From Pseudomonadota bacterium (GTDB lineage Bacteria; Pseudomonadota; Gammaproteobacteria; Halothiobacillales; Halothiobacillaceae), in NCBI GenBank assembly GCA_040758395.1, contig JBFLVP010000022.1:24968-56967 (forward strand): a stretch of DNA of 32,000 nt. The letters run 5' to 3'. A model generated the notes under the pieces. That model did not search any database. It worked only from the letters and a program-made list of their open reading frames with translations, and was not told the DNA's origin. The stretch's first letter is position 1. Every line of letters begins with the position of its first letter. The translations under genes and the position numbers were made by a program. This document shows positions 4,041-28,854 of the stretch, in pieces.

Positions 4041-5231
4041 ATGACCACCCCCATTCTGCCGAACCGCGACGTCCTCCTTTTCCACCTCAGCCACAACGAC
4101 CTCGACGGTTACGGCGCGCAGTACATGACCCGCGCGGCGGGCTTCCGCGCTCGCTATTACAACGCCGACTACCGCGACGTGCCGGCCACCCTGGAACGCA
4201 TCTTCGCGGACATGGCTCAGGTGAACGAACCGGCCATGCTGCTGATCACCGACCTGAACCTGACCGTCGAACAGGCCGACATGGTGGCCAGGCGCATCGC
4301 AGGCGAAGCCGTCGCCGTCGAGAAACCGGCCAAGCAGACGGCCAAGCCCGGCCTGCTGAGCGCCGACCTGGCCACCATGCTCAAGCAATCCATCACCCCT
4401 GAGCGGCCCAGGCACACGGTCATGCTGCTCGACCACCATGCCACCGGCGAGGACGCGGCCGCCAAGCATGACTGGTACTACCTGGACACCACCCGCTGCG
4501 CCAGCCGACTGGCCTTCGAGGCCGTCACCCCCTATCTGAGCGCGGCCGATCAGGCGCTGTATGGTGCGCGAGCCGACTTCATCGACGTCGGCGACCGCTG
4601 GCTGAAGGACGATGCGCGCTTCCACCGCTCCATCTTCCTGATCGGACTGATCATGGAGGACGACCAATTGGCCCCGCCGCTGAGCGAGCTCAAGCGCGAC
4701 TTCCGTTTCCATATCATGGATGCCTTCTTCCAGCGCATGGAGCAGGGCGCCAGCCTGGAGGAGCTTGAGCGTGGTGTCTACGACTACCGCAAGGACTTCC
4801 TGCGCGGCCGCATCGCCGACACCGCGGTCGACGACAGCGAGGCCCCGCTCAAGGACAAGTTCCACAAGCTCTGCGCCGAGGTCATCCCGCCCAGCGAGAT
4901 TCCCATGCTGCGTATCGACGGGTACCGCGCTGGAATCTTCTTCAACTGGCCGCACGACGTGTTCCGCGGCGTGGTCATGGAGTTGATGGAGAACCAGGGC
5001 AAGATGGACATGGCGATCCGTGTCGGCGGCAATGGCCGCATGTCGCTGCGCTCCAACAACGGCGTGGACGTGGGCATCATCTCCGGCCGCTATTTCGAAG
5101 GCGGAGGCCACCCCGGCGCGGCCGGCGGCGTGCTCAAGGACAACCGCCTGAAGGACGTCCAGCAGGCCATGCGCAGCATCAGCCAGACCATCACCGAGAA
5201 AAAGGGCCAGGTCGAAATCATCCCGGTGTGA
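4041..5231 (+). CDS. DHH/DHHA1 family phosphoesterase
   Basis: The ordered motifs are HNDLDG (I), ITDLN (II), LLDHHATG (III, DHH) and GGGHPGAAGG (the DHHA1 GGGH motif). Confidence 0.8.
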   Translation: MTTPILPNRDVLLFHLSHNDLDGYGAQYMTRAAGFRARYYNADYRDVPATLERIFADMAQVNEPAMLLITDLNLTVEQADMVARRIAGEAVAVEKPAKQTAKPGLLSADLATMLKQSITPERPRHTVMLLDHHATGEDAAAKHDWYYLDTTRCASRLAFEAVTPYLSAADQALYGARADFIDVGDRWLKDDARFHRSIFLIGLIMEDDQLAPPLSELKRDFRFHIMDAFFQRMEQGASLEELERGVYDYRKDFLRGRIADTAVDDSEAPLKDKFHKLCAEVIPPSEIPMLRIDGYRAGIFFNWPHDVFRGVVMELMENQGKMDMAIRVGGNGRMSLRSNNGVDVGIISGRYFEGGGHPGAAGGVLKDNRLKDVQQAMRSISQTITEKKGQVEIIPV

Positions 5232-5710
5232 GCATGCACGGCTCCAAGTACATCACCCCCGAGGGCCACCGGCGCCTGACCGAAGAACTCAACGACCTCT
5301 GGCGCGTGCAACGCCCCAAGGTCGTGCAGGCCGTATCCGAGGCCGCCGCGCTGGGCGACCGCTCCGAGAACGCCGAGTACATCTACGGCAAGAAGATGCT
5401 GCGCGAGATCGACCGCCGCGTGCGCTTCCTGCGCAAGCGGCTGGACGGCATGGTGGTGGTTTCCGAAACACCGTCCGATTCTTCCCGCGTGTTCTTCGGT
5501 GCCTGGGTGGTGCTGGAAGACGACGATGGGATGGAGCTGGAGGTTCGCATCGTCGGTCCCGACGAGTTCGACCCCAAGCGCAACTGGATCAGCCTGGACT
5601 CGCCCATGGCCCGGGCCCTGATGCGCCGTGCGGCGGGCGACGAGATCACCGTGCGCCTGCCGGGCGGGGAGCGCAGCTACTGCATCATCGAGGTGCGGTA
5701 CGGCGCTTAA
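5228..5710 (+). CDS. greB: Transcription elongation factor GreB
   Basis: Gre family signature: YITPEGHRRLTEELNDLW ... LGDRSENAEYIYGKKMLREIDRRVRFL ... ISLDSPMARAL. GTG 5228 overlaps the upstream stop (GTGTGA). ATG 5234 is an equally plausible start. Confidence 0.9.
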   Translation: MSMHGSKYITPEGHRRLTEELNDLWRVQRPKVVQAVSEAAALGDRSENAEYIYGKKMLREIDRRVRFLRKRLDGMVVVSETPSDSSRVFFGAWVVLEDDDGMELEVRIVGPDEFDPKRNWISLDSPMARALMRRAAGDEITVRLPGGERSYCIIEVRYGA

Positions 5711-5712
5711 AT

Positions 5713-5768
5713 CGTAGGCGCGAGCTTGCTCGCGATGACGGGAGATCGCGAGCAAGCCCGCTCCTACA
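5713..5768. repeat. REP-like composite palindrome / bidirectional terminator between convergent greB and mnmC
   Basis: The left arm is CGTAGGCGCGAGCTTGCTCGCGAT (5713-5736). The right arm (5745-5768) reverse-complements to TGTAGGAGCGGGCTTGCTCGCGAT, matching 21/24. The core 13 bp (5724-5736 / 5745-5757) is a perfect match with an 8-nt loop. The left arm also contains its own GCGAGC-TT-GCTCGC mini-hairpin; the right arm has only an imperfect version (GCGGGC-TT-GCTCGC). Confidence 0.55.
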
Positions 5769-7758
5769 GGGATTCATCCCCAGCCACCCAGGCCTGCCGG
5801 TGCTCCGGCGCCGAGCGCATCTGCCGATAATCGAAGCGCGCCGGATGCAAGGCATGCAGCAGATCCTCCGTCAGTGGCAACGGATCGCCGTTCAGCTCGC
5901 TTGCCAGCAGCTCGCCCAACAAGGCCGTCCACACCAGGCCGCGCGCGCCATGGCCGGTCGTCACCCACAGCCCTCTGAGCAAACGCGCCGTCGGGAAACG
6001 CCGCGCGGGCCAGCCGAGATGCAGCCCCTCGAACTCCCGCCGGAAGGCCTCGGCATCATGCAGCGGACCGGCCACCGGAAGCCGGTCAGGGGTGGCGCAG
6101 CGATGGCTGACCCGCCCCCCCAGCGAATCAGGCGACCTCTCCTCGACGTCAGGCAGGATGGCGCGCAGGCGATCGACATTGCCCTCATGATCCTCCCGGC
6201 GCGGCCCCGGATCGTGCACGCCGTGCGCAAAACTGGCGCCGAAGCAGTGCAGCCCCTCGCGCTCCGGGATGACATACCCCTCACGACAGGCCACCGCGCG
6301 CAGTCCCGCAAGGCTGTCCCTGGACGGCGACAGACTGATCTGCCCACGTACCGGCGCCAGCGGCAATGCCCCGGGCAGCAGATCGTTCAGGGCATGGGCA
6401 TTCGCCAGGATGACTGTCTCGCAGACCGCAAGCGAATGGCCGCCCTCGCCGACAACGACCCAGCCGCTCTCGTCCCGCTGCAACGCTGTGACAGACGCAC
6501 CGGTTTGCAGACGTATCCCCGGGTGATCCAGCAGCGCCCTCACAACAGCCGGGGGATGCACCCAGCCGCCGCCCGAAAACCACCAGCCGGGCTGCTCAAC
6601 CCGCGCACCGATGAGCTCCGAGCCTTCCTCCGCCTCGACCCAACGGGCGAATTCAGGCGGCAGGTTCAGGCTGGCGGCGATCTTGAGCTGTTGGGCGGCA
6701 TGCCGCGGATTGCGCGCCAAGCGCAGGACCCCGCAAGGATGCCAGTCGATCTCGGGGTGCGTCTGCGCCAGTCGGTCCAGCATCCGCCTCGCATACCCCA
6801 GTCCAAGGCTGGCGATGCGACTGAGCGCATTCCATTCCGCACTGAGCACTGGCAGCAGAATCCCCGCGTGATTGCCGGAGGCCTCCCGCGCGGGGTCGGC
6901 ATGGCGCTCGAGCACCTGCACGCACCAGCCTCGCTCAGCCAGCCGCCGGGCGACCGAGGCTCCGGCAATGCCCGCGCCGATGATCACCGCCTCACGCCCG
7001 CTGGGTGTCGCCCCACACGGGAACCACGGCGGACCGCGATCCGGCAAGGACTCCCCCGCCCAGTGCCCGACCAGCATCTCGCGCTTGCGGCCGAATCCGG
7101 GACGTTTCTCGCACACGAATCCAGCGGCAGCCAGACCGTCCCGTACCATGCGGGCACAGGTGAACGTCGCAAAGGTCGCTCCGGGCGCCGACAGGCGGGC
7201 CATGACCTCAAATAACGCAGGTTGCCACATGGCGGGGTTCTTCGCCGGAGCGAAACCATCCAGGAACCAGGCATCAACCCGCATGCGCGCAAACGGCAGG
7301 ATCTCCAGCGCATCGCCAAACAGCAGGGTGAGCACCACCCTCCCCCCGGCAAGCTCGAGCCGGTGTGTTCCAGGAATCAGATCCGGATATTGGGCAAGAA
7401 GCTCGGCCGCGAGTCCGGCCAGCGGATGATCCTGCGGGTACAGAATGGCGAGTTGATCCTTCCGAATGGGATGCTTCTCAACCGATACGATGTGCAGGAT
7501 CGCATCCAGTGGGGCTGTATCAAGGAAGGCCCGTGCGGCCACAAGCGCGTTCTGTCCCGTACCAAACCCCGTCTCGCCGATGACGAATCGCTGACAGGCT
7601 AGCCAGCGATCCGGCAAGCGATTGGCCCGCAAGAACACATGCCGGGTTTCAGCCAGACCACCGTCGGCCGAGTAGTAAACATCACCGTACGCCGAGCTAC
7701 GCGGCAGGCCGGCGGCATCAAGCTCGATCTCGGCCGGACACAAAGCCTCAACCTTCAT
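5764..7758 (-). CDS. mnmC: Bifunctional tRNA (mnm5s2U34) methyltransferase / FAD-dependent cmnm5s2U34 oxidoreductase MnmC
   Basis: 664 aa. The N-terminal SAM-methyltransferase half contains FVIGETGFGTGQN. The C-terminal half is a DAO-type FAD domain with VIIGAGIAGASVARRLAERG. This two-domain architecture is diagnostic of MnmC. Confidence 0.9.
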   Translation of the reverse strand: MKVEALCPAEIELDAAGLPRSSAYGDVYYSADGGLAETRHVFLRANRLPDRWLACQRFVIGETGFGTGQNALVAARAFLDTAPLDAILHIVSVEKHPIRKDQLAILYPQDHPLAGLAAELLAQYPDLIPGTHRLELAGGRVVLTLLFGDALEILPFARMRVDAWFLDGFAPAKNPAMWQPALFEVMARLSAPGATFATFTCARMVRDGLAAAGFVCEKRPGFGRKREMLVGHWAGESLPDRGPPWFPCGATPSGREAVIIGAGIAGASVARRLAERGWCVQVLERHADPAREASGNHAGILLPVLSAEWNALSRIASLGLGYARRMLDRLAQTHPEIDWHPCGVLRLARNPRHAAQQLKIAASLNLPPEFARWVEAEEGSELIGARVEQPGWWFSGGGWVHPPAVVRALLDHPGIRLQTGASVTALQRDESGWVVVGEGGHSLAVCETVILANAHALNDLLPGALPLAPVRGQISLSPSRDSLAGLRAVACREGYVIPEREGLHCFGASFAHGVHDPGPRREDHEGNVDRLRAILPDVEERSPDSLGGRVSHRCATPDRLPVAGPLHDAEAFRREFEGLHLGWPARRFPTARLLRGLWVTTGHGARGLVWTALLGELLASELNGDPLPLTEDLLHALHPARFDYRQMRSAPEHRQAWVAGDESL

Positions 7759-7840: not shown

Positions 7841-8224
7841 TTGTTTGATTACCGAAAAGCGGGACTGATCATCGTGCGCAAATACTCACGCATCCAGTTC
7901 GACACCGACGCTCAACTTGAGACCCCGCAGCAGCGCTTCGCTGTGCACATTATCGATATTTCAATCAAGGGCGTACTCCTCGAAGTCCCCGAGGATGCCC
8001 ATACCCCCGATAACGCACGCTTTTCCCTGCATATTCCCTTGTCCGACGAGAGCTTGGCCATCCACCTTCAAGCCGTTCCTCGCCATCGGGAAGGTCGACG
8101 TCTTGGCTGTGAGTGGGTCGCGATCGATCTGGACAGCATGACCAGCCTGCGCCGTCTGCTTGAACTGAACCTTGCCGACAACCGCCTGCTCGAACGCGAA
8201 CTCGGGCAACTTTGCCACGGCTGA
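7841..8224 (+). CDS. PilZ domain c-di-GMP receptor protein
   Basis: It has canonical RxxxR (RKYSR) and D/NxSxxG (DISIKG) motifs at normal spacing. There is no in-frame ATG start, so the start is either TTG 7841 (ORF track) or GTG 7874 (MRKYSRIQF...). Confidence 0.8.
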   Translation: MFDYRKAGLIIVRKYSRIQFDTDAQLETPQQRFAVHIIDISIKGVLLEVPEDAHTPDNARFSLHIPLSDESLAIHLQAVPRHREGRRLGCEWVAIDLDSMTSLRRLLELNLADNRLLERELGQLCHG

Positions 8225-8237
8225 AATACAGGTCACC

Positions 8238-9266
8238 ATGTACAACGACTACCCTGACACTCCGGAAGAAGCCGCTTCCAATCTGCGCCTTGTGCTGCAA
8301 ATGATGGGGCGCCACGAAATCCCTCCCAATCCGCGCAACTATGCACTCTGCTACGAATACATCCTTGCACGGAGCCCCTCCCTCAACAGAGCCATCGACA
8401 CTCAGCTCGAGCAACACGGGCGACTGTCTGAGGATGCCTCCCTCAGCCTGTTTGACGAGCACATCGCTCACGGCGCCATCGGCACCGTGCAGGGCGCCCA
8501 GGAAGAACTCAAGCGCATCCTGCGTTCGGTCATGCTTCAACTGCTCCATACCGGCAACGAATTCGCCCAATATGCCAACGGCCTGGGTACGCACATCGAG
8601 CGCTTGAGAGGCGACCCCGATGCCAGCCTTCTGCGCGAAATCACTCAGCATGTCGTCGATGACACACGTCAACTCGAAACCAGCAGCAAGTACTCGAGCA
8701 CACGCCTTTCCGGCGCAACGGAAGAAATCGAGCGGCTCCGCAAGGAACTGGACGAAGCAAGAAAGGATGCCAGCACCGACCCCCTGACCGGCCTCCTCAA
8801 CCGACGTGCTTTTACCACCGTCATCGCCAATGCCATCACCAAGCATCGCGCGGACCAGCAGCCGTTCTGTCTTCTGATGCTGGACATCGACCACTTCAAG
8901 GAAGTCAATGACACCTACGGGCATCTGGTCGGTGACAAGGTTCTGCGGTTTGTTAGCCGACTCCTGTCGCAAGTCCTCAAGGGACAGGACACTTTGTGCC
9001 GATTTGGTGGCGAGGAGTTCGCCGCACTGCTCCCGGATACCGGTCTTGATGGTGCGGAGCACGTGGCTGAAACCATCCGGAGTCGCCTGCTGAACAGTCA
9101 ACTCCGCCTGACGGAGAGCGGCCAGTCGCTGGGCGAAATCACCGCCTCCTTTGGCGTCGCCAAGTTCCGAGGCGACGAGACCATCGAGGAGATCATCCAG
9201 CGCACCGACCGTGCCCTGTATGAGGCCAAGCGCCTGGGCCGCAACCGGGTTTCGCGCGCGCAATAA
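8238..9266 (+). CDS. Diguanylate cyclase (GGDEF domain, GGEEF active site) with an N-terminal coiled-coil/sensor region
   Basis: Start set at ATG 8238 (MYNDYPDTPEE...); the ORF-track 5' extension overlaps the PilZ gene. The GGDEF core is DPLTGLLNRRAF ... DIDHFKEVNDTYGHLVGD ... RFGGEEFAALL. The I-site position reads KGQD rather than RxxD. Confidence 0.9.
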   Translation: MYNDYPDTPEEAASNLRLVLQMMGRHEIPPNPRNYALCYEYILARSPSLNRAIDTQLEQHGRLSEDASLSLFDEHIAHGAIGTVQGAQEELKRILRSVMLQLLHTGNEFAQYANGLGTHIERLRGDPDASLLREITQHVVDDTRQLETSSKYSSTRLSGATEEIERLRKELDEARKDASTDPLTGLLNRRAFTTVIANAITKHRADQQPFCLLMLDIDHFKEVNDTYGHLVGDKVLRFVSRLLSQVLKGQDTLCRFGGEEFAALLPDTGLDGAEHVAETIRSRLLNSQLRLTESGQSLGEITASFGVAKFRGDETIEEIIQRTDRALYEAKRLGRNRVSRAQ

Positions 9267-9269
9267 AAA

Positions 9270-9289
9270 GGCCGCCCCATGGGGCGGCC
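9270..9289. terminator. GC-rich hairpin after the cyclase gene, at the island's left junction
   Basis: GGCCGCCCC (9270-9278) pairs with GGGGCGGCC (9281-9289). It is preceded by AAAAA on the plus strand, which is TTTTT after the hairpin on the minus strand. It could therefore terminate both the cyclase gene and the island's minus-strand operon. Confidence 0.5.
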
Positions 9290-9370
9290 CCTGCAAGGTG
9301 GTGGGGGCAGCCACACTATCCGGCTCTAATGGCGCCACAGAAGCGTTCTTGCAGCGCGTGAATTTCGAGA

Positions 9371-9390: not shown

Positions 9391-9442
9391 CCGAGAAGGC
9401 GCTGCTGCCTTGTTATCCACTGTTACCAGCCTGTTCTCAGGG

Positions 9443-10837: not shown

Positions 10838-10845
10838 GACGGTTT

Positions 10846-10881
10846 GGCAATCGGCCTGGCAGGTAACTCAAGCCGATTGCC
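10846..10881. promoter_or_regulatory. 10-bp perfect inverted repeat (candidate operator) downstream of a TAATAT -10-like box
   Basis: GGCAATCGGC (10846-10855) pairs with GCCGATTGCC (10872-10881), with a 16-nt spacer. On the minus strand a TAATAT hexamer (10889-10894) lies just upstream. The corresponding -35 element (TTCGGT) is poor. Confidence 0.35.
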
Positions 10882-11046
10882 TGAATTCATATTACCGCAC
10901 TTTCACGATTTACCGAAGGTTAATGCCTGATTAACCCATACTGGTTTCTTGAGGCGCGAAAGAGGAATTAATGGGCGGACGAATCAGCATGTGCAGAGCG
11001 CTCAAAATGAGCACTTGAAAACCGCCGAAGCTCTCGCCGAGCAGTT

Positions 11047-11081
11047 CGGGCAAATGTTCGAAGCTTGCGGGCAAATGTTCG
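11047..11081. repeat. Two exact 14-bp direct repeats, CGGGCAAATGTTCG, 21 bp apart
   Basis: The copies are at 11047-11060 and 11068-11081, two helical turns apart. They lie in the 395-bp non-coding gap between the replication module and the small-ORF operon. Confidence 0.6.
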
Positions 11082-11234
11082 GACCCAGTTCTGGCAGCCT
11101 CGGGCGGTGAGTTTTGTGAGTTATTTCCGGCCCTGTTTATGTAAATGGCAGACTGGATGCTCCGCCAAGGGAAGGGACTTGTTCATGGTGGCCCCATAAG
11201 GGCTGGGCCTCGAAAAGTACCCGGATAAACTCCG

Positions 11235-11597
11235 TCAAGCCCCGCCTTTCAGGCTTACAGCCGCCCTGAAAGCGAAGGTTGCGGATTCGCCCGTCTGCAC
11301 TCTGCGCAGGAAGTCAGCGGCGGCGTCCGCGCTCTCGAAACAGGCGGAATCCATCAGGCGGCCACCGCGCACCAGCACGGCCCGGCTCGGCAAATCGGGG
11401 TCCGAGTTCCAGCCATCGGGATGGCCTGAATAGTCGTTGGAGCACAACCGCTTGAGCGCCGGGAGGTGGGCGCGGATCGCTGCCCGGTCGGCATCGGTCA
11501 AGCGTCTGGACGGATTCACCAAAAGCCGGTTTTTCGCATCAAGCCGAAAGTCGAAGCCGCGCTCGATCATGGCGAATAAAAATTCGGCGGCGGTCAC
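11235..11597 (-). CDS. Hypothetical island protein (120 aa); the N-terminus resembles a TubC_N-type docking motif
   Basis: The GTG start overlaps the helicase stop (GTGA), with GGAGGA 6 nt upstream. The N-terminus EFLFAMIERGFDFRLDAKNRLLVNPSRRLTDADRAAIRAHLPALKRL follows the G-hydrophobic-L...LT...R...I..H...L pattern of that small domain. This is recognition from memory only. Confidence 0.6.
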   Translation of the reverse strand: MTAAEFLFAMIERGFDFRLDAKNRLLVNPSRRLTDADRAAIRAHLPALKRLCSNDYSGHPDGWNSDPDLPSRAVLVRGGRLMDSACFESADAAADFLRRVQTGESATFAFRAAVSLKGGA

Positions 11598-13591
11598 CAG
11601 AATTCCTCCGGGTCATCCATATCTTCGCCAGTCCCGTTTTCTAGGTGGACATGGTGGACAGGTGGACAAGGCCAGTCAGAATGCGGGTTTGCGCCCGTCC
11701 ACCCGGTTTCATCAGTGGTGGACAGGTGGACAGCCTCGCCCCCCCTCGTGTCCACCTGTCCACCGTCCCCGTGGATATGGTGGACAGCCTCTAGCCCGCG
11801 TTGCGCCTGGGTTTGTCCACCCTGTCCACCTTGTCCACCCGATTTCGAGGGCTGCCCGGTTTCTTCATCGAACAAGATGGAATCCTTCACGGTGTACCAG
11901 CGGCCCCGGCCTAGCGGGGTGGATACTTGCGCCATCAGCTTTCGGTCATTGGTGAACAGGTGCCCAGCGCCCCGGATGGCCTGGGCAATGCTCTTCACGT
12001 CATGGCCCGGCGCGGCCTCAATCAAAGCCTCTTTGCTGAACATCCAGCGCCCCCCGGTCACGTCCCGGAATCCGGCGCGGTCGCGTACCTCGATCTCGCT
12101 CGCCGCGTCCTGAAAGCGTGCCCCATGTCGCAGGATGAAGGCGCGCACGGCCTCCAGGGTGCGTTCCCCGTCCGTGCCTGTAGCGTTGCTCCCCCATTGA
12201 GCGGCGACGGCTTGCACGGCCTGCCACACGCGGGCAGGGTTGACCGGGAGCACATCATGTCGGGCGGCGAACTCACCCGCCCATGCGATCAGGGCGAAGC
12301 GACGCAGGGCGCGGATTTGCTCGGGGGCGTGGTGCGGGCGTGTCATGTCCGCCGTGGCCTTGTCCAGGTGCTCCCGTACAGCGGCGCGGGCGGACTGGGC
12401 TGCGGGACAGGTGGCGATGATGGCGGACAGGACAGCAGGCCCCGCCGTGCCGTAGTTCACGGCGCAGGCCCGTTTCAGGTTTTGCACGAAGGCGGCGCGC
12501 TCATCCTCCGGCAGGTGGGCGGCGATGTCTTCCACCTCGATGTCCAGGGCGCGATGCAGCAGCCCGCCCTTGACCGGCCCGGTTTCGGACAGCTTGCCCT
12601 CGATGCTCATTTCCCCGGTGCTGATGGCGATGGTTCGCCATGCCCTGGGGGCCTTTAGCTGGCGGTCTGCCGACATGGCGGTTTTGCCCTGCCCTCCGGC
12701 TAGCTGATAGATCAGCGGGGCCATGTCCCGGTGTTGCCCGGCTCCAAGCTCATCCAAACACAGCGGAAGGTCGGCATGGGCTTCGGCCAAGCCCTCCAAG
12801 CCGTTGCCGGTAGTGTTCCAGCGGCGGACAAAGGACAAGGCCGGGGCCTCGGCAGGATCAACACCACAACCCCACACGGAAGCGGCAACCTGGGCAAGGG
12901 TGGTCTTCCCTCGGGACGTGGTGCCCCACAGGTGCACGATGAAGGAATCACCATCCCCCAGCAGCAGCCAAGGCGTGGCGAGCCCAGCGCAGACTGCGAA
13001 CAGGAGCGCGTCACTCCCGGCGATGCGTTCCCCTATCTCCCGTTGCCAGTCCTCCAGCGTGCCGGATGCGTGCACGGTCAAGGCGGTCGGGCTATACCGC
13101 TCCGGCTGGTAGACAACCTGGACGTTGCCTTCGGCAGTCAGCACGCGGTCGGGAAACACGAAGGCCATCCCCCCGTCCCGCCGATCCATCCAGCCAAGGC
13201 GCGGGGCGCTCGGGATGCGGTCCTCGGGCTTGAAGCTGGCGAGATAAGCCACCAGGCGGCGCTCTTTACCGGGGATGATGGCAAGGCCCATATTCGCCAG
13301 TTCGCGGGCAAGGATGGCGGGGTCCTCATGCAGGCGGGCGGCGGGGATGGCGAGCTGGCGGGCGTGCCCGTCATGATCCACGAAGGCCACCAGGCGGCCC
13401 CAATCTCCAGCGGTGCCGGTGGTCAGCCCGACAACCCACAGCGGGCCACACACAGCCTCCAGCTTGTGGCCTTCACCATCCTTGCCGGGCCTCACCTCGA
13501 ACACACCCGCGCCCCCTAGCTCCCAGCCATCCGGCGCGGCGATGCCATCCCACGGGCGCGGCGTAACTTCCACGTCTTCATCATGCAGCAT
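11594..13591 (-). CDS. DUF927-like P-loop replicative helicase / replication initiator
   Basis: Start set at ATG 13591 (MLHDEDVEV...), with AGGGGG upstream. Walker A is HLWGTTSRGKTTLAQVAASVWG and Walker B is LPLCLDELG. The overall layout resembles DUF927-family island and plasmid helicases. The low-complexity C-terminal tail is encoded by the octamer array. Confidence 0.85.
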   Translation of the reverse strand: MLHDEDVEVTPRPWDGIAAPDGWELGGAGVFEVRPGKDGEGHKLEAVCGPLWVVGLTTGTAGDWGRLVAFVDHDGHARQLAIPAARLHEDPAILARELANMGLAIIPGKERRLVAYLASFKPEDRIPSAPRLGWMDRRDGGMAFVFPDRVLTAEGNVQVVYQPERYSPTALTVHASGTLEDWQREIGERIAGSDALLFAVCAGLATPWLLLGDGDSFIVHLWGTTSRGKTTLAQVAASVWGCGVDPAEAPALSFVRRWNTTGNGLEGLAEAHADLPLCLDELGAGQHRDMAPLIYQLAGGQGKTAMSADRQLKAPRAWRTIAISTGEMSIEGKLSETGPVKGGLLHRALDIEVEDIAAHLPEDERAAFVQNLKRACAVNYGTAGPAVLSAIIATCPAAQSARAAVREHLDKATADMTRPHHAPEQIRALRRFALIAWAGEFAARHDVLPVNPARVWQAVQAVAAQWGSNATGTDGERTLEAVRAFILRHGARFQDAASEIEVRDRAGFRDVTGGRWMFSKEALIEAAPGHDVKSIAQAIRGAGHLFTNDRKLMAQVSTPLGRGRWYTVKDSILFDEETGQPSKSGGQGGQGGQTQAQRGLEAVHHIHGDGGQVDTRGGEAVHLSTTDETGWTGANPHSDWPCPPVHHVHLENGTGEDMDDPEEFW
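11644..11839. repeat. Dyad-symmetric array of TGTCCACC/GGTGGACA octamers (candidate origin iterons)
   Basis: GGTGGACA starts at 11644, 11653, 11661, 11717, 11725 and 11779. TGTCCACC starts at 11749, 11757, 11814, 11823 and 11832. A degenerate cGTCCACC starts at 11696. All six mirror pairs share one axis near 11741. Confidence 0.85.
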
Positions 13592-13925
13592 GGGCCACCC
13601 CCTTGGCTTTGAACGCGGCGAAGCCGTGCAAACGGCTGTTGATGGCGACGTGAACGGCCCCGGCATGGATCAAGCAACGGCCAAGACGTTGCAGCACCTC
13701 GGCGCGCTCGCCGGTGTCGATAACAAAGGCATGGCGGCTTTCGCGCACCACTCCCCAGTTGAAGCCCTCGGGCGCCTCGCCAGGGGGGAGGATCACCGCC
13801 TGGCCCCGCCAGTTGCGCGCCTCGCTCCAAGCCTGCGGCCCTGAAATGACGATGAGGCTCGCAAAGGGGGCGGATTGGTGCAGTGCCGCAATGGCGGCGA
13901 ATGGGGGGCGGCGTTGCCGCGTCAT
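13581..13925 (-). CDS. Hypothetical island protein (114 aa) between alpA and the helicase
   Basis: ATG 13925 lies 4 nt after the alpA stop, and the 3' end overlaps the helicase start by 11 nt, giving operon-style coupling. No family recognised. Confidence 0.6.
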   Translation of the reverse strand: MTRQRRPPFAAIAALHQSAPFASLIVISGPQAWSEARNWRGQAVILPPGEAPEGFNWGVVRESRHAFVIDTGERAEVLQRLGRCLIHAGAVHVAINSRLHGFAAFKAKGVAHAA

Positions 13926-13928
13926 GGC

Positions 13929-14183
13929 TTAACCCACCCCAGTTTTGAGGGGCTTGCCGCCCTGGGCGGCAGTGAACGAGCAGGACGCGCTGCCGCCACG
14001 CTGCTGGCAACGGGCTTCGATCCAGGCGTTAATTTCGTCGTCGCGCCAGGCGGCCACTCGTGGGCTGATTTTTACAGGCTTTGGTGCTGTTCCGAGACTG
14101 ACCCAGTGGTACCAGGTCGAGCGCGATACTCGCACTCGCGCCTGGACGTCGGGCCAGCGGAGGAATTGAACGGGTTGTTTCAT
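13929..14183 (-). CDS. alpA: AlpA family transcriptional regulator / excisionase-like DNA-binding protein
   Basis: Start set at ATG 14183, with GGAGA 7 nt upstream. FLRWPDVQARVRVSRSTWYHWVSLGTAPKPVKISPRVAAWRDDEINAWIEAR matches the Phage_AlpA helix-turn-helix pattern (SRST.Y......G.FP.P.K...R...W...E...W). Confidence 0.85.
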   Translation of the reverse strand: MKQPVQFLRWPDVQARVRVSRSTWYHWVSLGTAPKPVKISPRVAAWRDDEINAWIEARCQQRGGSASCSFTAAQGGKPLKTGVG

Positions 14184-14327
14184 GGGGCGTCTCCACACGG
14201 TTCCGGAGAGAACCGACTGGAATCCATGATGCCCGGCAGCGCTTGGCTAAAGCAAATCCTGAAAGGTGTTCAAAAACAAGGGCATACAGCGCTTAATACA
14301 CGTATCTACGCAAGGATACTATGGCAA

Positions 14328-14367: not shown

Positions 14368-15603
14368 TCAGGCCACGGACGGGAATCGGACCACCTCAGC
14401 CCCCGCTTTCAGCTTGCCCAGGTAGTCCGCCCACGCCTGCATCATCTTCCTGCGCTCCGGCAGGTGGGCGGTCCGGTTATAGGCCCTGCCGTTGGCATCC
14501 TTCACGGCGTGCGCCAACTGGTGCTCGATGAGGTCGATACGGAAGCCCAGCACCTCATCCAGCAGGGTGCGGGCGATGGCGCGGAAGCCGTGCCCGGTCA
14601 TCTCATCCTTGTGGATGTCCAGGCGGCGCATGGCGGACAGGATGGCGTTATCGCTCATGGGACGGGCGCGGGTGCGGGCGCTTGGGAAAACGTATTCACT
14701 CGCGCAGGTCAGGGGGTGAAGCTCGCGCAGAATCTCGACGGCCTGGCGGCTCAGGGGAACAACGTGCTCCGTCTTGGTTTTGCTTACGCGGTACACCCAT
14801 TCGGCGGCGTCCAGGTCCACATCACGCCAGCGCATGGTGCGCAGTTCGCCAGGACGGACGAAAACCAGCGGTGCAAGGCGCAGGGCGCAGGCCACGATGA
14901 AACCACCCTGATAGCCGTCCAGGGTGCGCAGCAAGGCCCCTACCCTTCGCTCGCGTTCCTTCGGCTCCAGGGTGCCATCAATGACGGCGGCAAGATGCTT
15001 TTCCCGTGCTGGCGGCAATGCGCCGCGCAGGTCGCCCGTGGGGTCGCGTTCGGCCCGTCCGGTCGCCACGGCGTAGCGGAAGATTTGCCCGCAGTTGCCC
15101 AGCACCCGGTGGGCGGTTTCCAGCGCCCCGCGTTCCTCGATTCGGCGAAGGTGAATCAGAAGCTCGGGCGCCTTGATGTCGGCAATGGGCTTGCTGCCCA
15201 ACCAGGGGAAGATGTCGCGCTCCAGTCGCTTGGTCATATTGTCCACATGGCGCGGGGACCAGGTGGGTGCGTACTTTGCCAGCCACTCGCGTGCGACTAC
15301 CTCGAAGCTGTTCGCGGCCCGCTCCTGTCCCGCTTGCTTGGCGGCCTTCCTGTGTTCGCCGGGGTCGATGCCTTGTGCAAGCTGCTCTCGCGCCTCGGTG
15401 TGTTTCCTGCGCGCTTCTTTCAGGCTCACGTCGGGGTAGGCCCCCAGGGCGAGGGTCTTTCGCTTGCCCATGTGGCGGTAGTCGTACCTCCACAGGCGTC
15501 CTCCCTTGGGGGTCACGAGAAGGTAGAGGCCCGCGCCGTCAGTCAGCTTGACGGGCTTGTCCGTGGGCTTGGCGTTGCGGATGGCGGTGTCGGTAAGGGG
15601 CAT
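14368..15603 (-). CDS. int: Tyrosine-type site-specific integrase, P4/CP4-57 family (DUF4102 N-terminal arm-binding domain)
   Basis: 411 aa. The N-terminus is LTDTAIRNAKPTDKPVKLTDGAGLYLLVTPKGGRLWRYDYR..GKRKTLALGAYPDVSLKEARRK. The catalytic region has HGFRAIARTLL and a C-terminal RAYNRTAHLPERRKMMQAWADYL. It lies next to the tmRNA 3' end. Confidence 0.95.
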   Translation of the reverse strand: MPLTDTAIRNAKPTDKPVKLTDGAGLYLLVTPKGGRLWRYDYRHMGKRKTLALGAYPDVSLKEARRKHTEAREQLAQGIDPGEHRKAAKQAGQERAANSFEVVAREWLAKYAPTWSPRHVDNMTKRLERDIFPWLGSKPIADIKAPELLIHLRRIEERGALETAHRVLGNCGQIFRYAVATGRAERDPTGDLRGALPPAREKHLAAVIDGTLEPKERERRVGALLRTLDGYQGGFIVACALRLAPLVFVRPGELRTMRWRDVDLDAAEWVYRVSKTKTEHVVPLSRQAVEILRELHPLTCASEYVFPSARTRARPMSDNAILSAMRRLDIHKDEMTGHGFRAIARTLLDEVLGFRIDLIEHQLAHAVKDANGRAYNRTAHLPERRKMMQAWADYLGKLKAGAEVVRFPSVA

Positions 15604-15765: not shown

Positions 15766-16131
15766 TGGTGGAGGTGGGGGGAGTTGAACCCCCGTCCGCA
15801 AGCCCTCTGCTGTTGGCACTACATGCTTAGTCTCGCCTACTGGATTTAACCGCTCAGTCTCCGACGGACGGGATGCTGAACAGCGAGCCCTGAAGTTTTA
15901 GCCGCACGCTTTCGGGCAAAGCGCTTGGCGATTCTGTAATGGATGACCCCTGAATGGCCTTGCGGCCTCCGGACTTACAGACAAGAACCGGTCAGAGGCC
16001 CAGCCGGGTTAAGCGGCCAGGGAGTATACGTCGTCGTTGGCGTATATTTTTTTTGCGGCTGTTTCACGAGGTTTCCGCACCTCGGCATGCACCTCGAGCT
16101 TTGCAACCCACGTCGAAGCCAGGTCACCCCC
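15766..16131 (-). ncRNA. ssrA: tmRNA (transfer-messenger RNA, SsrA), 366 nt
   Basis: The 5' end GGGGGUGACCUGGCUUCGACG pairs with the 3' end ...GGUUCAACUCCCCCCACCUCCACCA, forming an acceptor stem with the G3:U pair plus a T-arm. The internal tag reading frame (16041-16009) is GCC AAC GAC GAC GTA TAC TCC CTG GCC GCT TAA, giving ANDDVYSLAA. Confidence 0.92.
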
Positions 16132-27468: not shown

Positions 27469-28854
27469 TCAGCCTTCGCGCCGCCAGCGGGTACCATCCG
27501 CGCTGTCCTCCAGCACGATGCCCAGCCTCGAAAGCTCTTGGCGAATGGCGTCGGCGCGTGCGAAATCGCGCGCGGCACGGGCATCAAGGCGTTGTTGTAT
27601 GAGCGCTTCGATGGCCGCGTTATCCAGCCCTTCCCCGGATGCGGCACCGCCCTGGAGCCAGGCCTCGGCATCAGCCTGCAACAGGCCGAGTACCCCGCCA
27701 AGACGCTTGAGCGTGGCGGCTGCGCGATCACGCTCATCTCCGTCGCGCTTGTGGATCTCGCCCGCGAGTTCGAACAATACGGCCATGGCTTCCGGGGTGT
27801 TGAAATCATCATCCATCGCTGCGTGGAAGCGAGCGGCATGGTCCTCCAGCACAGCCAGGTCGGCCTTTACCTCGCCTGCATCGCGCAGCGCGGTATACAA
27901 GCGGGTCAGCGCACTGCGCGCGGTCTTGAGCTGCTCGTCACCATAGTTCAGCGGGCTACGGTAATGGCTGTTGAGGATGAAGAAACGGATCTCCTCGCCG
28001 CGGAAGTCCTTCATCACCTCGCGCACGGTGAAGAAGTTGTTCAGCGACTTCGACATCTTCTCCTCGTTGATGCGCACGAAGCCGTTGTGCATCCAGTAGT
28101 TGACGTAATGGCACCCGGTCGCCGCCTCGCTCTGAGCGATCTCGTTCTCGTGGTGGGGAAACTGCAGGTCCATGCCGCCGCCGTGAATGTCGAAACTATG
28201 CCCCAGGCAGGTGGTGGACATGGCCGAGCATTCGATATGCCAGCCCGGACGGCCTGGCCCCCAGGGCGATTCCCATGCAGGCTCGTCCGGCTTGGCCGCC
28301 TTCCAGAGCACGAAATCGAGCGGGTCATCCTTGGCCTCGCCAATCTCGACTCGCGCCCCGGCACGCAGGTCATCAGGATTCTTGCCCGACAAGCGGCCGT
28401 ATCCATCGAATTTGCTGACGTCGTAGTACACATCGCCATTGTCGGCGCGGTAGGCAAAACCCTTCTCGATCAATGCGCCGATCATCGACAACATCTCGGG
28501 GATGGAGCCGGTGGCGCGTGGCTCGTGGTCGGGGCGAAGGCAGCCGAGGGCATCAGCGTCCTCGTGCATGGCGTCGATGAAGCGCTGGGTCAGGGTGTCG
28601 ATGCCCTCGCCGTTCTCGGCCGCTCGCTTGATGATCTTGTCGTCGATGTCTGTGATGTTGCGTACATAGGTGACATCGAAGCCCAGGTGCTTCAGATAGC
28701 GATAGACCACATCGAACACTACCATGACCCGCGCATGCCCCAGGTGACAGAAATCGTAGACCGTCATCCCGCAGACGTACATGCGTACCTTGCCTGCTTC
28801 GATGGGTTTGAATTCCTGCTTTGCGCGAGTTTCGGTGTTGTAGATGTGGAGCAT
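27469..28854 (-). CDS. cysS: Cysteine--tRNA ligase
   Basis: Start set at ATG 28854 ([10 protein letters not shown]...). It has the class I HIGH motif (CHLGHARV) and KMSKS. The ORF-track 5' extension to 28905 is unlikely. Confidence 0.95.

Follow-up and report, generated by a model that had tools for sequence, protein, structure and literature searches.

A twelve-site iteron dyad translated within a DUF927 helicase gene: the probable replication origin of a small ssrA-integrated island in Halothiobacillaceae

A stretch of 32,000 nucleotides (nt) from a Pseudomonadota bacterium of the Halothiobacillaceae (GenBank assembly GCA_040758395.1, contig JBFLVP010000022.1, positions 24,968 to 56,967 of the forward strand; hereafter the window, whose own numbering is used) holds a DUF927 helicase gene in whose 3' part twelve copies of the octamer GGTGGACA are arrayed in dyad symmetry. 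From sequence comparison, this array is likely to serve a small island as iteron origin, cognate to the island's own self-loading DUF927 helicase. As an origin it would be of a known kind in an unusual place and layout, that is, a translated, GC-rich dyad of twelve sites, and no description of a translated twelve-site dyad origin was found in the literature searched. An earlier note on the same DNA had already taken the array for a candidate origin bound by the adjacent helicase; the cluster is indeed kept in relatives and covaries with the C-terminal domain of the helicase, but the array lies inside coding sequence.

The octamer array and the gene that contains it

The octamer was found exactly 12 times in the window, and 11 of these copies are concentrated in the 196 base pairs (bp) of the array, the only other one being isolated at 28213. 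Within the array, the word starts at 11644, 11653, 11661, 11717, 11725 and 11779 on the plus strand and at 11749, 11757, 11814, 11823 and 11832 on the minus strand (read there as the complement, TGTCCACC), and a twelfth, degenerate site is found at 11696 (cGTCCACC, or GGTGGACg on the other strand). In dinucleotide-preserving shuffles of 32 kilobases (kb) the octamer appeared 1.28 times on average and never more than 4 times, in such a way that the array is far above chance expectation. The sums of start and end coordinates of the six mirror pairs are 23483, 23483, 23482, 23482, 23481 and 23481, and therefore there is one two-fold axis, around 11741.

On the coding strand of the helicase gene the layout is FFF-R-FF | RR-F-RRR (F, direct; R, inverted). 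The half that adjoins the region coding for the C-terminal domain has direct copies at 11839-11832, 11830-11823, 11821-11814, 11764-11757 and 11756-11749 and an inverted one at 11779-11786, with site starts at 0, 9, 18, 53, 75 and 83, and the distal half mirrors it with sites at 11725, 11717, 11696 (the degenerate one), 11661, 11653 and 11644. A re-scan of the window found every octamer coordinate of the earlier note to be right, and its single axis was recovered with the same sums. The partial mirroring that it had seen in the flanks corresponds to an inverted repeat reported by a repeat finder (I1, with 43-nt arms that are 74% complementary, in the array flanks and spacers), whereas the C-rich spacer at the axis is present but has 16 nt, the 18-mer given before having taken in the first TG of the next octamer. 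No second cluster, comparable to the crr of phage P4, was detected in the window, where matches with one mismatch are scattered.

The gene product, identical to an annotated protein of 665 amino acids (aa; P0001), matches Pfam DUF927 (PF06048) with E = 2.8e-60; the longest form of its open reading frame (ORF) starts further upstream, at 13666 (11594..13666, minus strand). In phmmer searches against the PDB it matched Cch of the staphylococcal cassette chromosome SCCmec (5dgk, 2.8e-17) and the initiator-helicase Rep of the Staphylococcus aureus pathogenicity island (SaPI) SaPIbov1 (8tch, 2.6e-15). An AlphaFold 2 (AF2) model, built on 67 homologues, retrieved the same two structures with Foldseek (5dgk, E = 2e-24; 8tch, E = 2e-19), both matching over the whole folded length of the helicase, and subunits of the minichromosome maintenance (MCM) helicase came next. 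The homology and the model place the protein in the DUF927 / Cch / SaPIbov1-Rep family, with a predicted hexameric-helicase fold. The model is confident for residues 1-575, including a C-terminal winged-helix-like domain with helices at 520-526 and 532-541 and a β-hairpin at 554-569, and falls below 50 in predicted local distance difference test (pLDDT) for residues 576-665.

It is in this last part where the array lies: it occupies codons 585-650 of 665 in the ORF 11594..13591 (minus strand), ending 50 nt before the stop, and codes for a linker, predicted to be disordered, between the winged-helix-like domain and an acidic C-terminal tip. The encoded tail reads …GGQGGQGGQ…AVHH…GGQVDT…AVHLSTT…GWTG…PCPPVHHVHL…, as the octamer is translated in three frames and from both strands into unrelated peptides (GGQ, VD, WT, VH, ST and CP). 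It could be argued that the repeats are a by-product of a low-complexity GGQ tail, or of chance, without any function at the DNA level, having in mind that the region codes for GGQGGQGGQ within a disordered tail. However, the inverted copies code for other peptides (VHHVH, CPP, LST) in three frames, the shuffles never reached the observed octamer count, the DNA of the half-array outdoes the catalytic core in conservation between distant relatives, and the same arrays exist outside ORFs on plasmids, as described below, so that this explanation deserves practically no credit.

The acidic tip has F, L or W as its last residue in relatives, whether or not they have an array-encoded tail; those of relatives read SDEERF, TDSEAF or GEVEL, and that of the window (DDPEEFW) has a terminal aromatic residue. 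It resembles the C-terminal ends with which SSB and T7 replication proteins recruit their partners, and, as a speculation, it might recruit replisome proteins of the host. The need to reach this tip would be a consistent explanation for the ORF being open through every array. HLFTN, a conserved motif in the C-terminal domain, is coded by CACCTGTTCACCAAT (11951-11958), which includes the exact P4 iteron TGTTCACC; this is probably a coincidence of coding, as it is kept whatever the iteron type of the relative.

Conservation of the layout and exchange of the word with the C-terminal domain

Genome and metagenome scans, together with look-ups of single homologues, provided 26 related loci, and repeat arrays were mapped in 14 relatives in which the 3' end of the gene was present, with 48-89% protein identity. 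These come from metagenome-assembled genomes of Halothiobacillaceae, from Thiocystis, Thiocapsa, Marichromatium and Allochromatium, and from metagenomes. The earlier note had asked whether homologous islands keep an octamer cluster at this position, and all 14 relatives do: in 13 of them the most clustered octamer of the whole locus is that of the 3' end of the DUF927 gene, and in the remaining one (L005) the 3'-end cluster ties at the level of 8-mers and wins at that of 7-mers. On the coding strand, all show FFF-R-FF | RR-F-RRR, with A-tracts at both outer ends and with 35-90 nt left between the array and the stop. The site starts of the half-array (0, 9, 18, 53, 75, 83/84) are essentially invariant.

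The word itself varies. GGTGGACA is used by the window, L001, L007 and L011, GGTGGGCA (type B) by L002 and L014, GGTGTACA (type D) by L004, CTAGGGCA by L003, TGGGGCA by L005, CCGGGACA (type F) by L008, L010, L015 and L016, and GGGGGACA by L009. In each locus most of the around 12 sites carry the locus's own word, exactly or with one mismatch; copies are mostly exact in the GGTGGACA, GGTGGGCA and GGTGTACA types, and single mismatches are more abundant in the others. From one relative to another, all the copies on both arms change in concert. The spacers of about 27 nt within the halves (11669-11695 and 11787-11813 in the window) are themselves conserved in their equivalents from L001 to L014, the left one as …CAGCAAC..GCGGGCTAGAGCC (peptide QQPxGLE) and the right one as GCGCAAACCCGCATTCTGAC (peptide ANPHSD). 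L009 and L010 are different in that their right spacer repeats the left one in direct, not inverted, orientation.

Concerted change of two mirrored arms could also be expected from base pairing, if the dyad were an mRNA hairpin or a DNA cruciform acting on translation, stability or termination, and the folding energy predicted for the RNA is indeed extreme (-124.9 kcal/mol, z = -7.9 against shuffles). Nevertheless, a helix does not need a six-fold octamer in each arm, whereas here twelve copies take one new word in each lineage; the spacers are only 74% complementary, and in the two loci just mentioned one is a direct copy of the other; the halves are parted by the whole helicase gene or more in L021, L023, L012, L013, L017, L018 and L019; and the word changes with a protein domain. 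We regard a structural role as highly improbable.

This last relation was seen in several ways. Four pairs of homologues (P0002/P0003, P0005/P0006, P0007/P0011 and P0009/P0013) are 97-100% identical up to around residue 480-540 and only 40-60% beyond it, and their iteron types differ; the types of P0007/P0011 and P0009/P0013 were read from the encoded tail peptides only, and those of the other pairs also in the DNA. Conversely, P0003 and P0006 have N-terminal parts of 77-90% identity, are 100% identical over residues 472-560 and have the iteron in common. At the DNA level, L024 (TGGGGCA) and L002 (GGTGGGCA) have an identity of around 100% as far as the point where the C-terminal domain begins, which drops to 50-65% over this domain and the array and rises again to 98-100% shortly after the array, in the acidic tip, the stop codon and all of the downstream gene; L025 and L026 show the same pattern of exchange. 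Natural recombinants thus exchange exactly a cassette formed by the C-terminal domain and the array, in such a way that iteron specificity is linked to that domain, to the exclusion of neighbouring genes. The covariation of the octamer with the C-terminal domain of the helicase, suggested as a check in the earlier note, is borne out by these natural swaps. Types A, C and D differ mainly in the β-hairpin that follows the LFTN motif; from 19 loci a residue-level recognition code is not derivable, and the hairpin region alone is implicated.

L011 and L007 are Chromatiaceae loci with the same word, GGTGGACA, as the window; in comparison with them, identity was 75-76% in the half-array DNA, 52-53% in the body coding for the ATPase and 46% in the region coding for the C-terminal domain. 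The half-array is therefore more conserved than the catalytic core, and selection acts on the array as DNA.

The cassette exchange is also relevant to the possibility that the octamers are sites for another protein, such as a partition protein, the arm-binding domain of the integrase, a terminase (pac) or the host DnaA. Short arrays of direct and inverted repeats are typical as well of plasmid centromeres and integrase arm sites, the integrase of the island has an arm-binding domain, and TGTCCACC shares TCCAC with the DnaA box. Against this, the DNA on either side of the cassette, including the whole downstream gene, is 98-100% identical across a switch of iteron type; a distance of around 2.5 kb separates the array from int, and a longer one from the presumed attachment site (att) at ssrA; no par or terminase genes were recognised; and words of relatives such as CCGGGACA and CTAGGGCA are unlike the DnaA box, none of which is nearby. 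Binding mainly by another protein is consequently improbable in our opinion. By the same identity, the ORF of 120 aa downstream of the helicase gene is not the determinant of specificity, because its homologue is 98-100% identical across the switch. This small ORF, which overlaps the helicase stop, has in many relatives a recurrent start pattern (~LLxxLxxRGxxLxxDDxGRL) and gave no family match; its equivalents in L021 and L023 contain the right half-array, and BLASTP between the 120-aa ORF and the array-bearing ORF of L021 showed no correspondence.

In homologues that have no tail the halves are apart, with their inner geometry unchanged. L021 has FFF-R-FF within the ORF, in a linker that follows an N-terminal domain, and RR-F-RRR just past the stop, 1.9 kb away. 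In L023 the left half comes after the integrase gene, and 4.3 kb from it the right half comes after the helicase gene. More distant relatives, with 39-40% identity (the Nitrospira-type L012, L013 and L017, and also L018 and L019), have the DUF927 region immediately flanked by the two halves, one upstream and the other, mirrored, downstream. The gap between halves is hence 16 nt in the window, varied in the fused relatives, and 1.9 and 4.3 kb in the split ones. Plasmids also carry such arrays: in the circular plasmid III of Legionella fallonii (14.6 kb) the strongest cluster is that of TGGGACA, as FFF-R-FF-RRR starting 6 nt past the DUF927 stop, and pMNOD05 of Methylobacterium nodulans has an RR-F-RRR set of GGTGTGACA around 80 nt past it. 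Both DUF927 plasmids are small, circular and non-mobilizable. These comparisons point to the six-site half-array (three direct, one inverted and two direct sites) as the conserved unit, and to the dyad of the window as a fusion of two such pads. The two-fold layout stressed before is thus present here, but what is conserved is the half, with gaps between halves of up to 4.3 kb.

The origin within its island

The mechanism that we propose is as follows. The DUF927 helicase would be an MCM-like self-loading initiator-helicase of the Cch / SaPIbov1-Rep type, whose C-terminal winged-helix-like domain (residues ~474-573) would make the contact with the octamers. Each six-site half-array would nucleate one hexamer, and the two opposed half-arrays would load two hexamers of opposite orientation, leading to bidirectional unwinding. 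In the clade of the window both halves are fused into one dyad inside the codons of a disordered linker, much like the lambda ori in gene O. Octamer binding and hexamer loading are inferred here because of the homology of the protein and the analogy of the array with SaPI Rep, and the stoichiometry of the hexamers, melting and origin firing are meant in the same conditional sense. SaPI Rep proteins are both initiators and helicases that bind iterons by a C-terminal winged-helix domain without ATP, and their origins have 6-12 iterons in two opposite sets, on which they probably load as two hexamers (PMC9371898, PMC7581432).

Several data weigh against this proposal. There is no AT-rich unwinding element in or beside the array, whose centre has 14 G+C out of 16 positions, and a comparison of relatives revealed no conserved segment of low stability within it. 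No DnaA box was found within around 1.8 kb of the array, and no recognisable primase gene in the island. Neither the far border of the island nor an att repeat was found, direct repeats of the 3' end of the gene for transfer-messenger RNA (tmRNA) of at least 12 nt being absent, and no relatives were found among the viral contigs of IMG/VR. Furthermore, the window and L011 share the octamer, yet the DNA coding for their C-terminal domains is only 46% identical, and therefore no simple residue-to-base code can be read. Finally, the array could be a control element bound by Rep, with initiation elsewhere.

Such control might be an autoregulatory roadblock inside the ORF or handcuffing for copy number, the start site being at another place. 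In its favour are the location of the array in an ORF that is transcribed, 50 nt ahead of a downstream gene coupled to it in translation, the missing AT-rich element, the halves of relatives standing on both sides of the helicase gene in the manner of P4 ori and crr around the alpha operon, and the least stable DNA of the neighbourhood being in the gap 10838-11234. By contrast, in the best-studied relatives (SaPI and phage-inducible chromosomal island, PICI, Rep proteins) the iteron sets are themselves the origin, the only strong repeat cluster of the DUF927 plasmids is at this position, and the gap has only a 14-mer in two copies, not kept in the closest relatives. A mainly regulatory array is unlikely in our view, although control and origin roles are compatible and may coexist.

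Other places for melting or initiation were considered and rejected. The AT-rich patch at 11574-11585, which the earlier note had offered as unwinding element, does not hold up, being absent in the closest relatives (L001, L025 and L026) and outside the three least stable 30-mers nearby; a terminator-like match at the same place is weak and within the count expected from shuffles. The gap 10838-11234 was discarded as an origin, as it has only the two-copy 14-mer and a lower GC content, and similarity to the closest relatives stops before it. This gap is the only sizeable intergenic one in the island, with the lowest GC of the neighbourhood (0.54) and its least stable 30-mers, and has the 14-nt direct repeat CGGGCAAATGTTCG twice, 21 nt apart, at 11047-11081; it is probably the promoter/operator region of the next genes.

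Returning to the array as origin, a wider idea can be put forward that we ourselves hold to be doubtful. The six-site half might be a portable pad for the loading of one hexamer, with one site per subunit, and this syntax might be common to the DUF927 family and to the unrelated D5-type alpha protein of P4, either by convergence or by exchange of a module that has diverged beyond detection. Such pads would work fused or kilobases apart, and their fusion inside the ORF could couple occupancy of the origin to the synthesis of the full-length helicase and of the downstream gene product, as a feedback.

The features of the region are collected in Table 1. On the minus strand the order is tmRNA, int, AlpA, an ORF of 114 aa and the DUF927 helicase, with the integrase gene directly downstream of the tmRNA gene (tag peptide ANDDVYSLAA). 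In Gram-negative PICIs, int, alpA, pri/rep and ori follow one another in a single direction at a specific att site (PMC6092414), and by its gene order (int-alpA-rep-ori) the element of the window can be described as a small PICI-like island integrated at ssrA. An 11-mer considered as att repeat of the tmRNA 3' end was dropped as not significant. An exact 17-nt direct repeat, CTCCGGCAGGTGGGCGG, is found in the helicase gene (12506-12522) and in the integrase gene (14455-14471).

Table 1. Features of the island region in window coordinates
Feature	Coordinates	Strand	Remarks
Twelve-site iteron array (11 exact GGTGGACA/TGTCCACC and 1 degenerate)	11644..11839	none	codes for helicase residues 585-650
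Half-array adjoining the winged-helix coding region	11749..11839	-	FFF-R-FF on coding strand
Distal mirrored half-array	11644..11732	-	RR-F-RRR on coding strand
Central spacer GCCTCGCCCCCCCTCG	11733..11748	none	16 nt; 14/16 G or C; length differs among relatives
A-tract GAAAAC	11636..11641	-	directly after last iteron; (G/A)AAAAC in nearly every relative
Second A-tract CGAAATCG	11840-11847		ahead of first iteron
DUF927 helicase gene, putative self-loading initiator-helicase (Rep)	11594..13591	-	665 aa from Met at 13591
C-terminal winged-helix-like domain, putative iteron-recognition domain	11873..12172	-	residues 474-573, AF2 model
Acidic C-terminal tip GEDMDDPEEFW	11597..11629	-	kept in relatives
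Downstream 120-aa ORF	11235..11597	-	GTG start overlaps helicase stop (GTGA)
AlpA-family regulator/excisionase gene	13929..14198	-	Pfam Phage_AlpA, E = 7e-10
Tyrosine integrase gene	14368..15603	-	Pfam Arm-DNA-bind_3, Phage_int_M, Phage_integrase
tmRNA gene (ssrA), integration target adjoining integrase gene	15766..16131	-	ARAGORN

Primases are distributed unevenly in these elements. A separate Toprim_3 gene (5054-6004) lies directly upstream of the helicase in L024, and the Chromatiaceae proteins (L008-L011), with 1030-1170 aa, have an N-terminal Toprim/PriCT-2 fusion, whereas neither the window nor its closest relative, L025, has a recognisable primase; the 114-aa ORF upstream of the helicase was rejected as a candidate, showing no significant similarity to the Toprim protein that L024 has at that position. 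Packaging or interference genes were sought among the remaining ORFs of the island, which gave no Pfam or PHROG match. Some DUF927 elements have capsid genes: L023 carries a Phage_capsid_4 gene (7865-8977), and L029 (PP003922.1, 10.2 kb, 'Pseudomonas phage vB_Pae_U10') has int, excisionase, primase, DUF927 and a GpN-like capsid gene. The two elements resemble phage satellites, not phages. Beyond the island there is a gene for a bifunctional MnmC-like protein (Methyltransf_30 and DAO, 5764-7758), presumably chromosomal, and between both a 457-aa ORF (7965-9338) without family match.

With self-loading helicases of mobile islands, such as SaPI Rep, SCCmec Cch and P4 alpha, the loader-free placement of a ring helicase on double-stranded DNA can be studied in a simple model. 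The arrangement of two hexamers at the origin is still a question in the literature (PMC9371898). The elements described here offer a fixed grammar, with the twelve-site layout conserved across Halothiobacillaceae, Chromatiaceae, Nitrospira-type elements and plasmids; natural variants of specificity, an exchangeable C-terminal domain going with each of at least seven iteron words; and natural variants of spacing, since the halves are joined in part of the elements and separated in the rest. This material allows direct tests of the stoichiometry, orientation and specificity of loading. These elements also illustrate that origins can hide in genes, here in a translated linker, where searches restricted to intergenic regions miss them, and the array provides a simple sequence signature with which to find replicative islands in metagenomes.

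Comparison with known replication systems

The closest likeness is found with the Rep-ori modules of SaPIs and PICIs. The helicase belongs to the same fold family (SaPIbov1 Rep and SCCmec Cch are of the DUF927 type) and has a C-terminal winged-helix-like domain, the iteron type switching only with the exchange of this domain; up to 12 short iterons lie there in two opposed sets by rep, and here six on each side, mirrored; and in both cases the specificities of Rep and ori vary together between elements. The differences concern the location, as the ori of SaPIs and PICIs is intergenic and immediately downstream of rep, whereas here it would be inside the rep ORF and translated, although the relative on the Legionella plasmid does have an ori-like array just downstream of the rep ORF; the melting region, which is AT-rich and placed between the iteron sets there, in contrast to the GC-rich centre found here; and the units, of 5-6 nt there and of 8 nt with a fixed 3+1+2 syntax here. 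In addition, the island of the window has no recognisable primase, and in its relatives the two sets can lie kilobases apart. By analogy, the array resembles the SaPI/PICI Rep-ori module in its presumed working, and departs from it in its intergenic position and AT-rich centre.

The translated location has a parallel in lambdoid phages, whose ori is inside gene O, in such a way that the iterons are translated and their number changes the length of the protein (PMC7466680). There too the iterons bound by the initiator lie within its own ORF. The O protein, however, is no helicase and showed no relationship with the DUF927 protein, its origin has 4-6 iterons of 19 bp plus an AT-rich tract in the middle of the gene, and there is no octamer dyad at the 3' end of the gene.

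As for the dyad, at the origins of SV40 large T and papillomavirus E1 short words in two-fold symmetry direct two opposed hexamers of a self-loading helicase. The same analogy has been drawn before (PMC7581432). By contrast with the present case, large T and E1 are superfamily 3 (SF3) helicases of eukaryotic viruses with an N-terminal origin-binding domain, and their non-coding origins contain 4-6 sites, with AT or palindromic melting elements at the flanks.

The parallel with phage P4 had been drawn in the earlier note, and its two factual points were found to be correct: the type 1 repeat of the P4 record is TGTTCACC/GGTGAACA, and GGTGAACA is one base off GGTGGACA; and crr (4291-4590) lies next to the 3' end of alpha (4636-6969, minus strand), 46 nt beyond it. 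In P4 ori, direct copies of GGTGAACA at 9310, 9320 and 9331 are followed by an inverted one at 9353 and by two more direct ones at 9396 and 9406; these six sites, within around 100 bp, have the order and polarity (FFF-R-FF) of the half-array of the window. The second cluster, crr, is likewise at the 3' end of the helicase gene, and the two clusters bracket the replication operon as the halves of L021 and L023 do. It is also a C-terminal domain of the P4 helicase that binds the origin. The parallel stands as an analogy only, as alpha has no detectable similarity to the helicase: homology was rejected both by BLASTP (E = 1.6) and by hhalign of the C-terminal domain profile (probability below 1%), and alpha is a primase-helicase with the Pfam domains Zn-ribbon, Toprim, D5_N, DUF5906 and Pox_D5, not DUF927. 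Other differences are the site starts (0, 10, 21, 43, 86 and 96 in P4 ori, against 0, 9, 18, 53, 75 and 83 in the half-array of the window), the intergenic location of the P4 iterons in AT-rich DNA, and their distribution in two separate regions, ori and crr, whereas the window has a single fused array. On the basis of these analogies, the array would work like P4 ori, yet it is no member of the P4 system.

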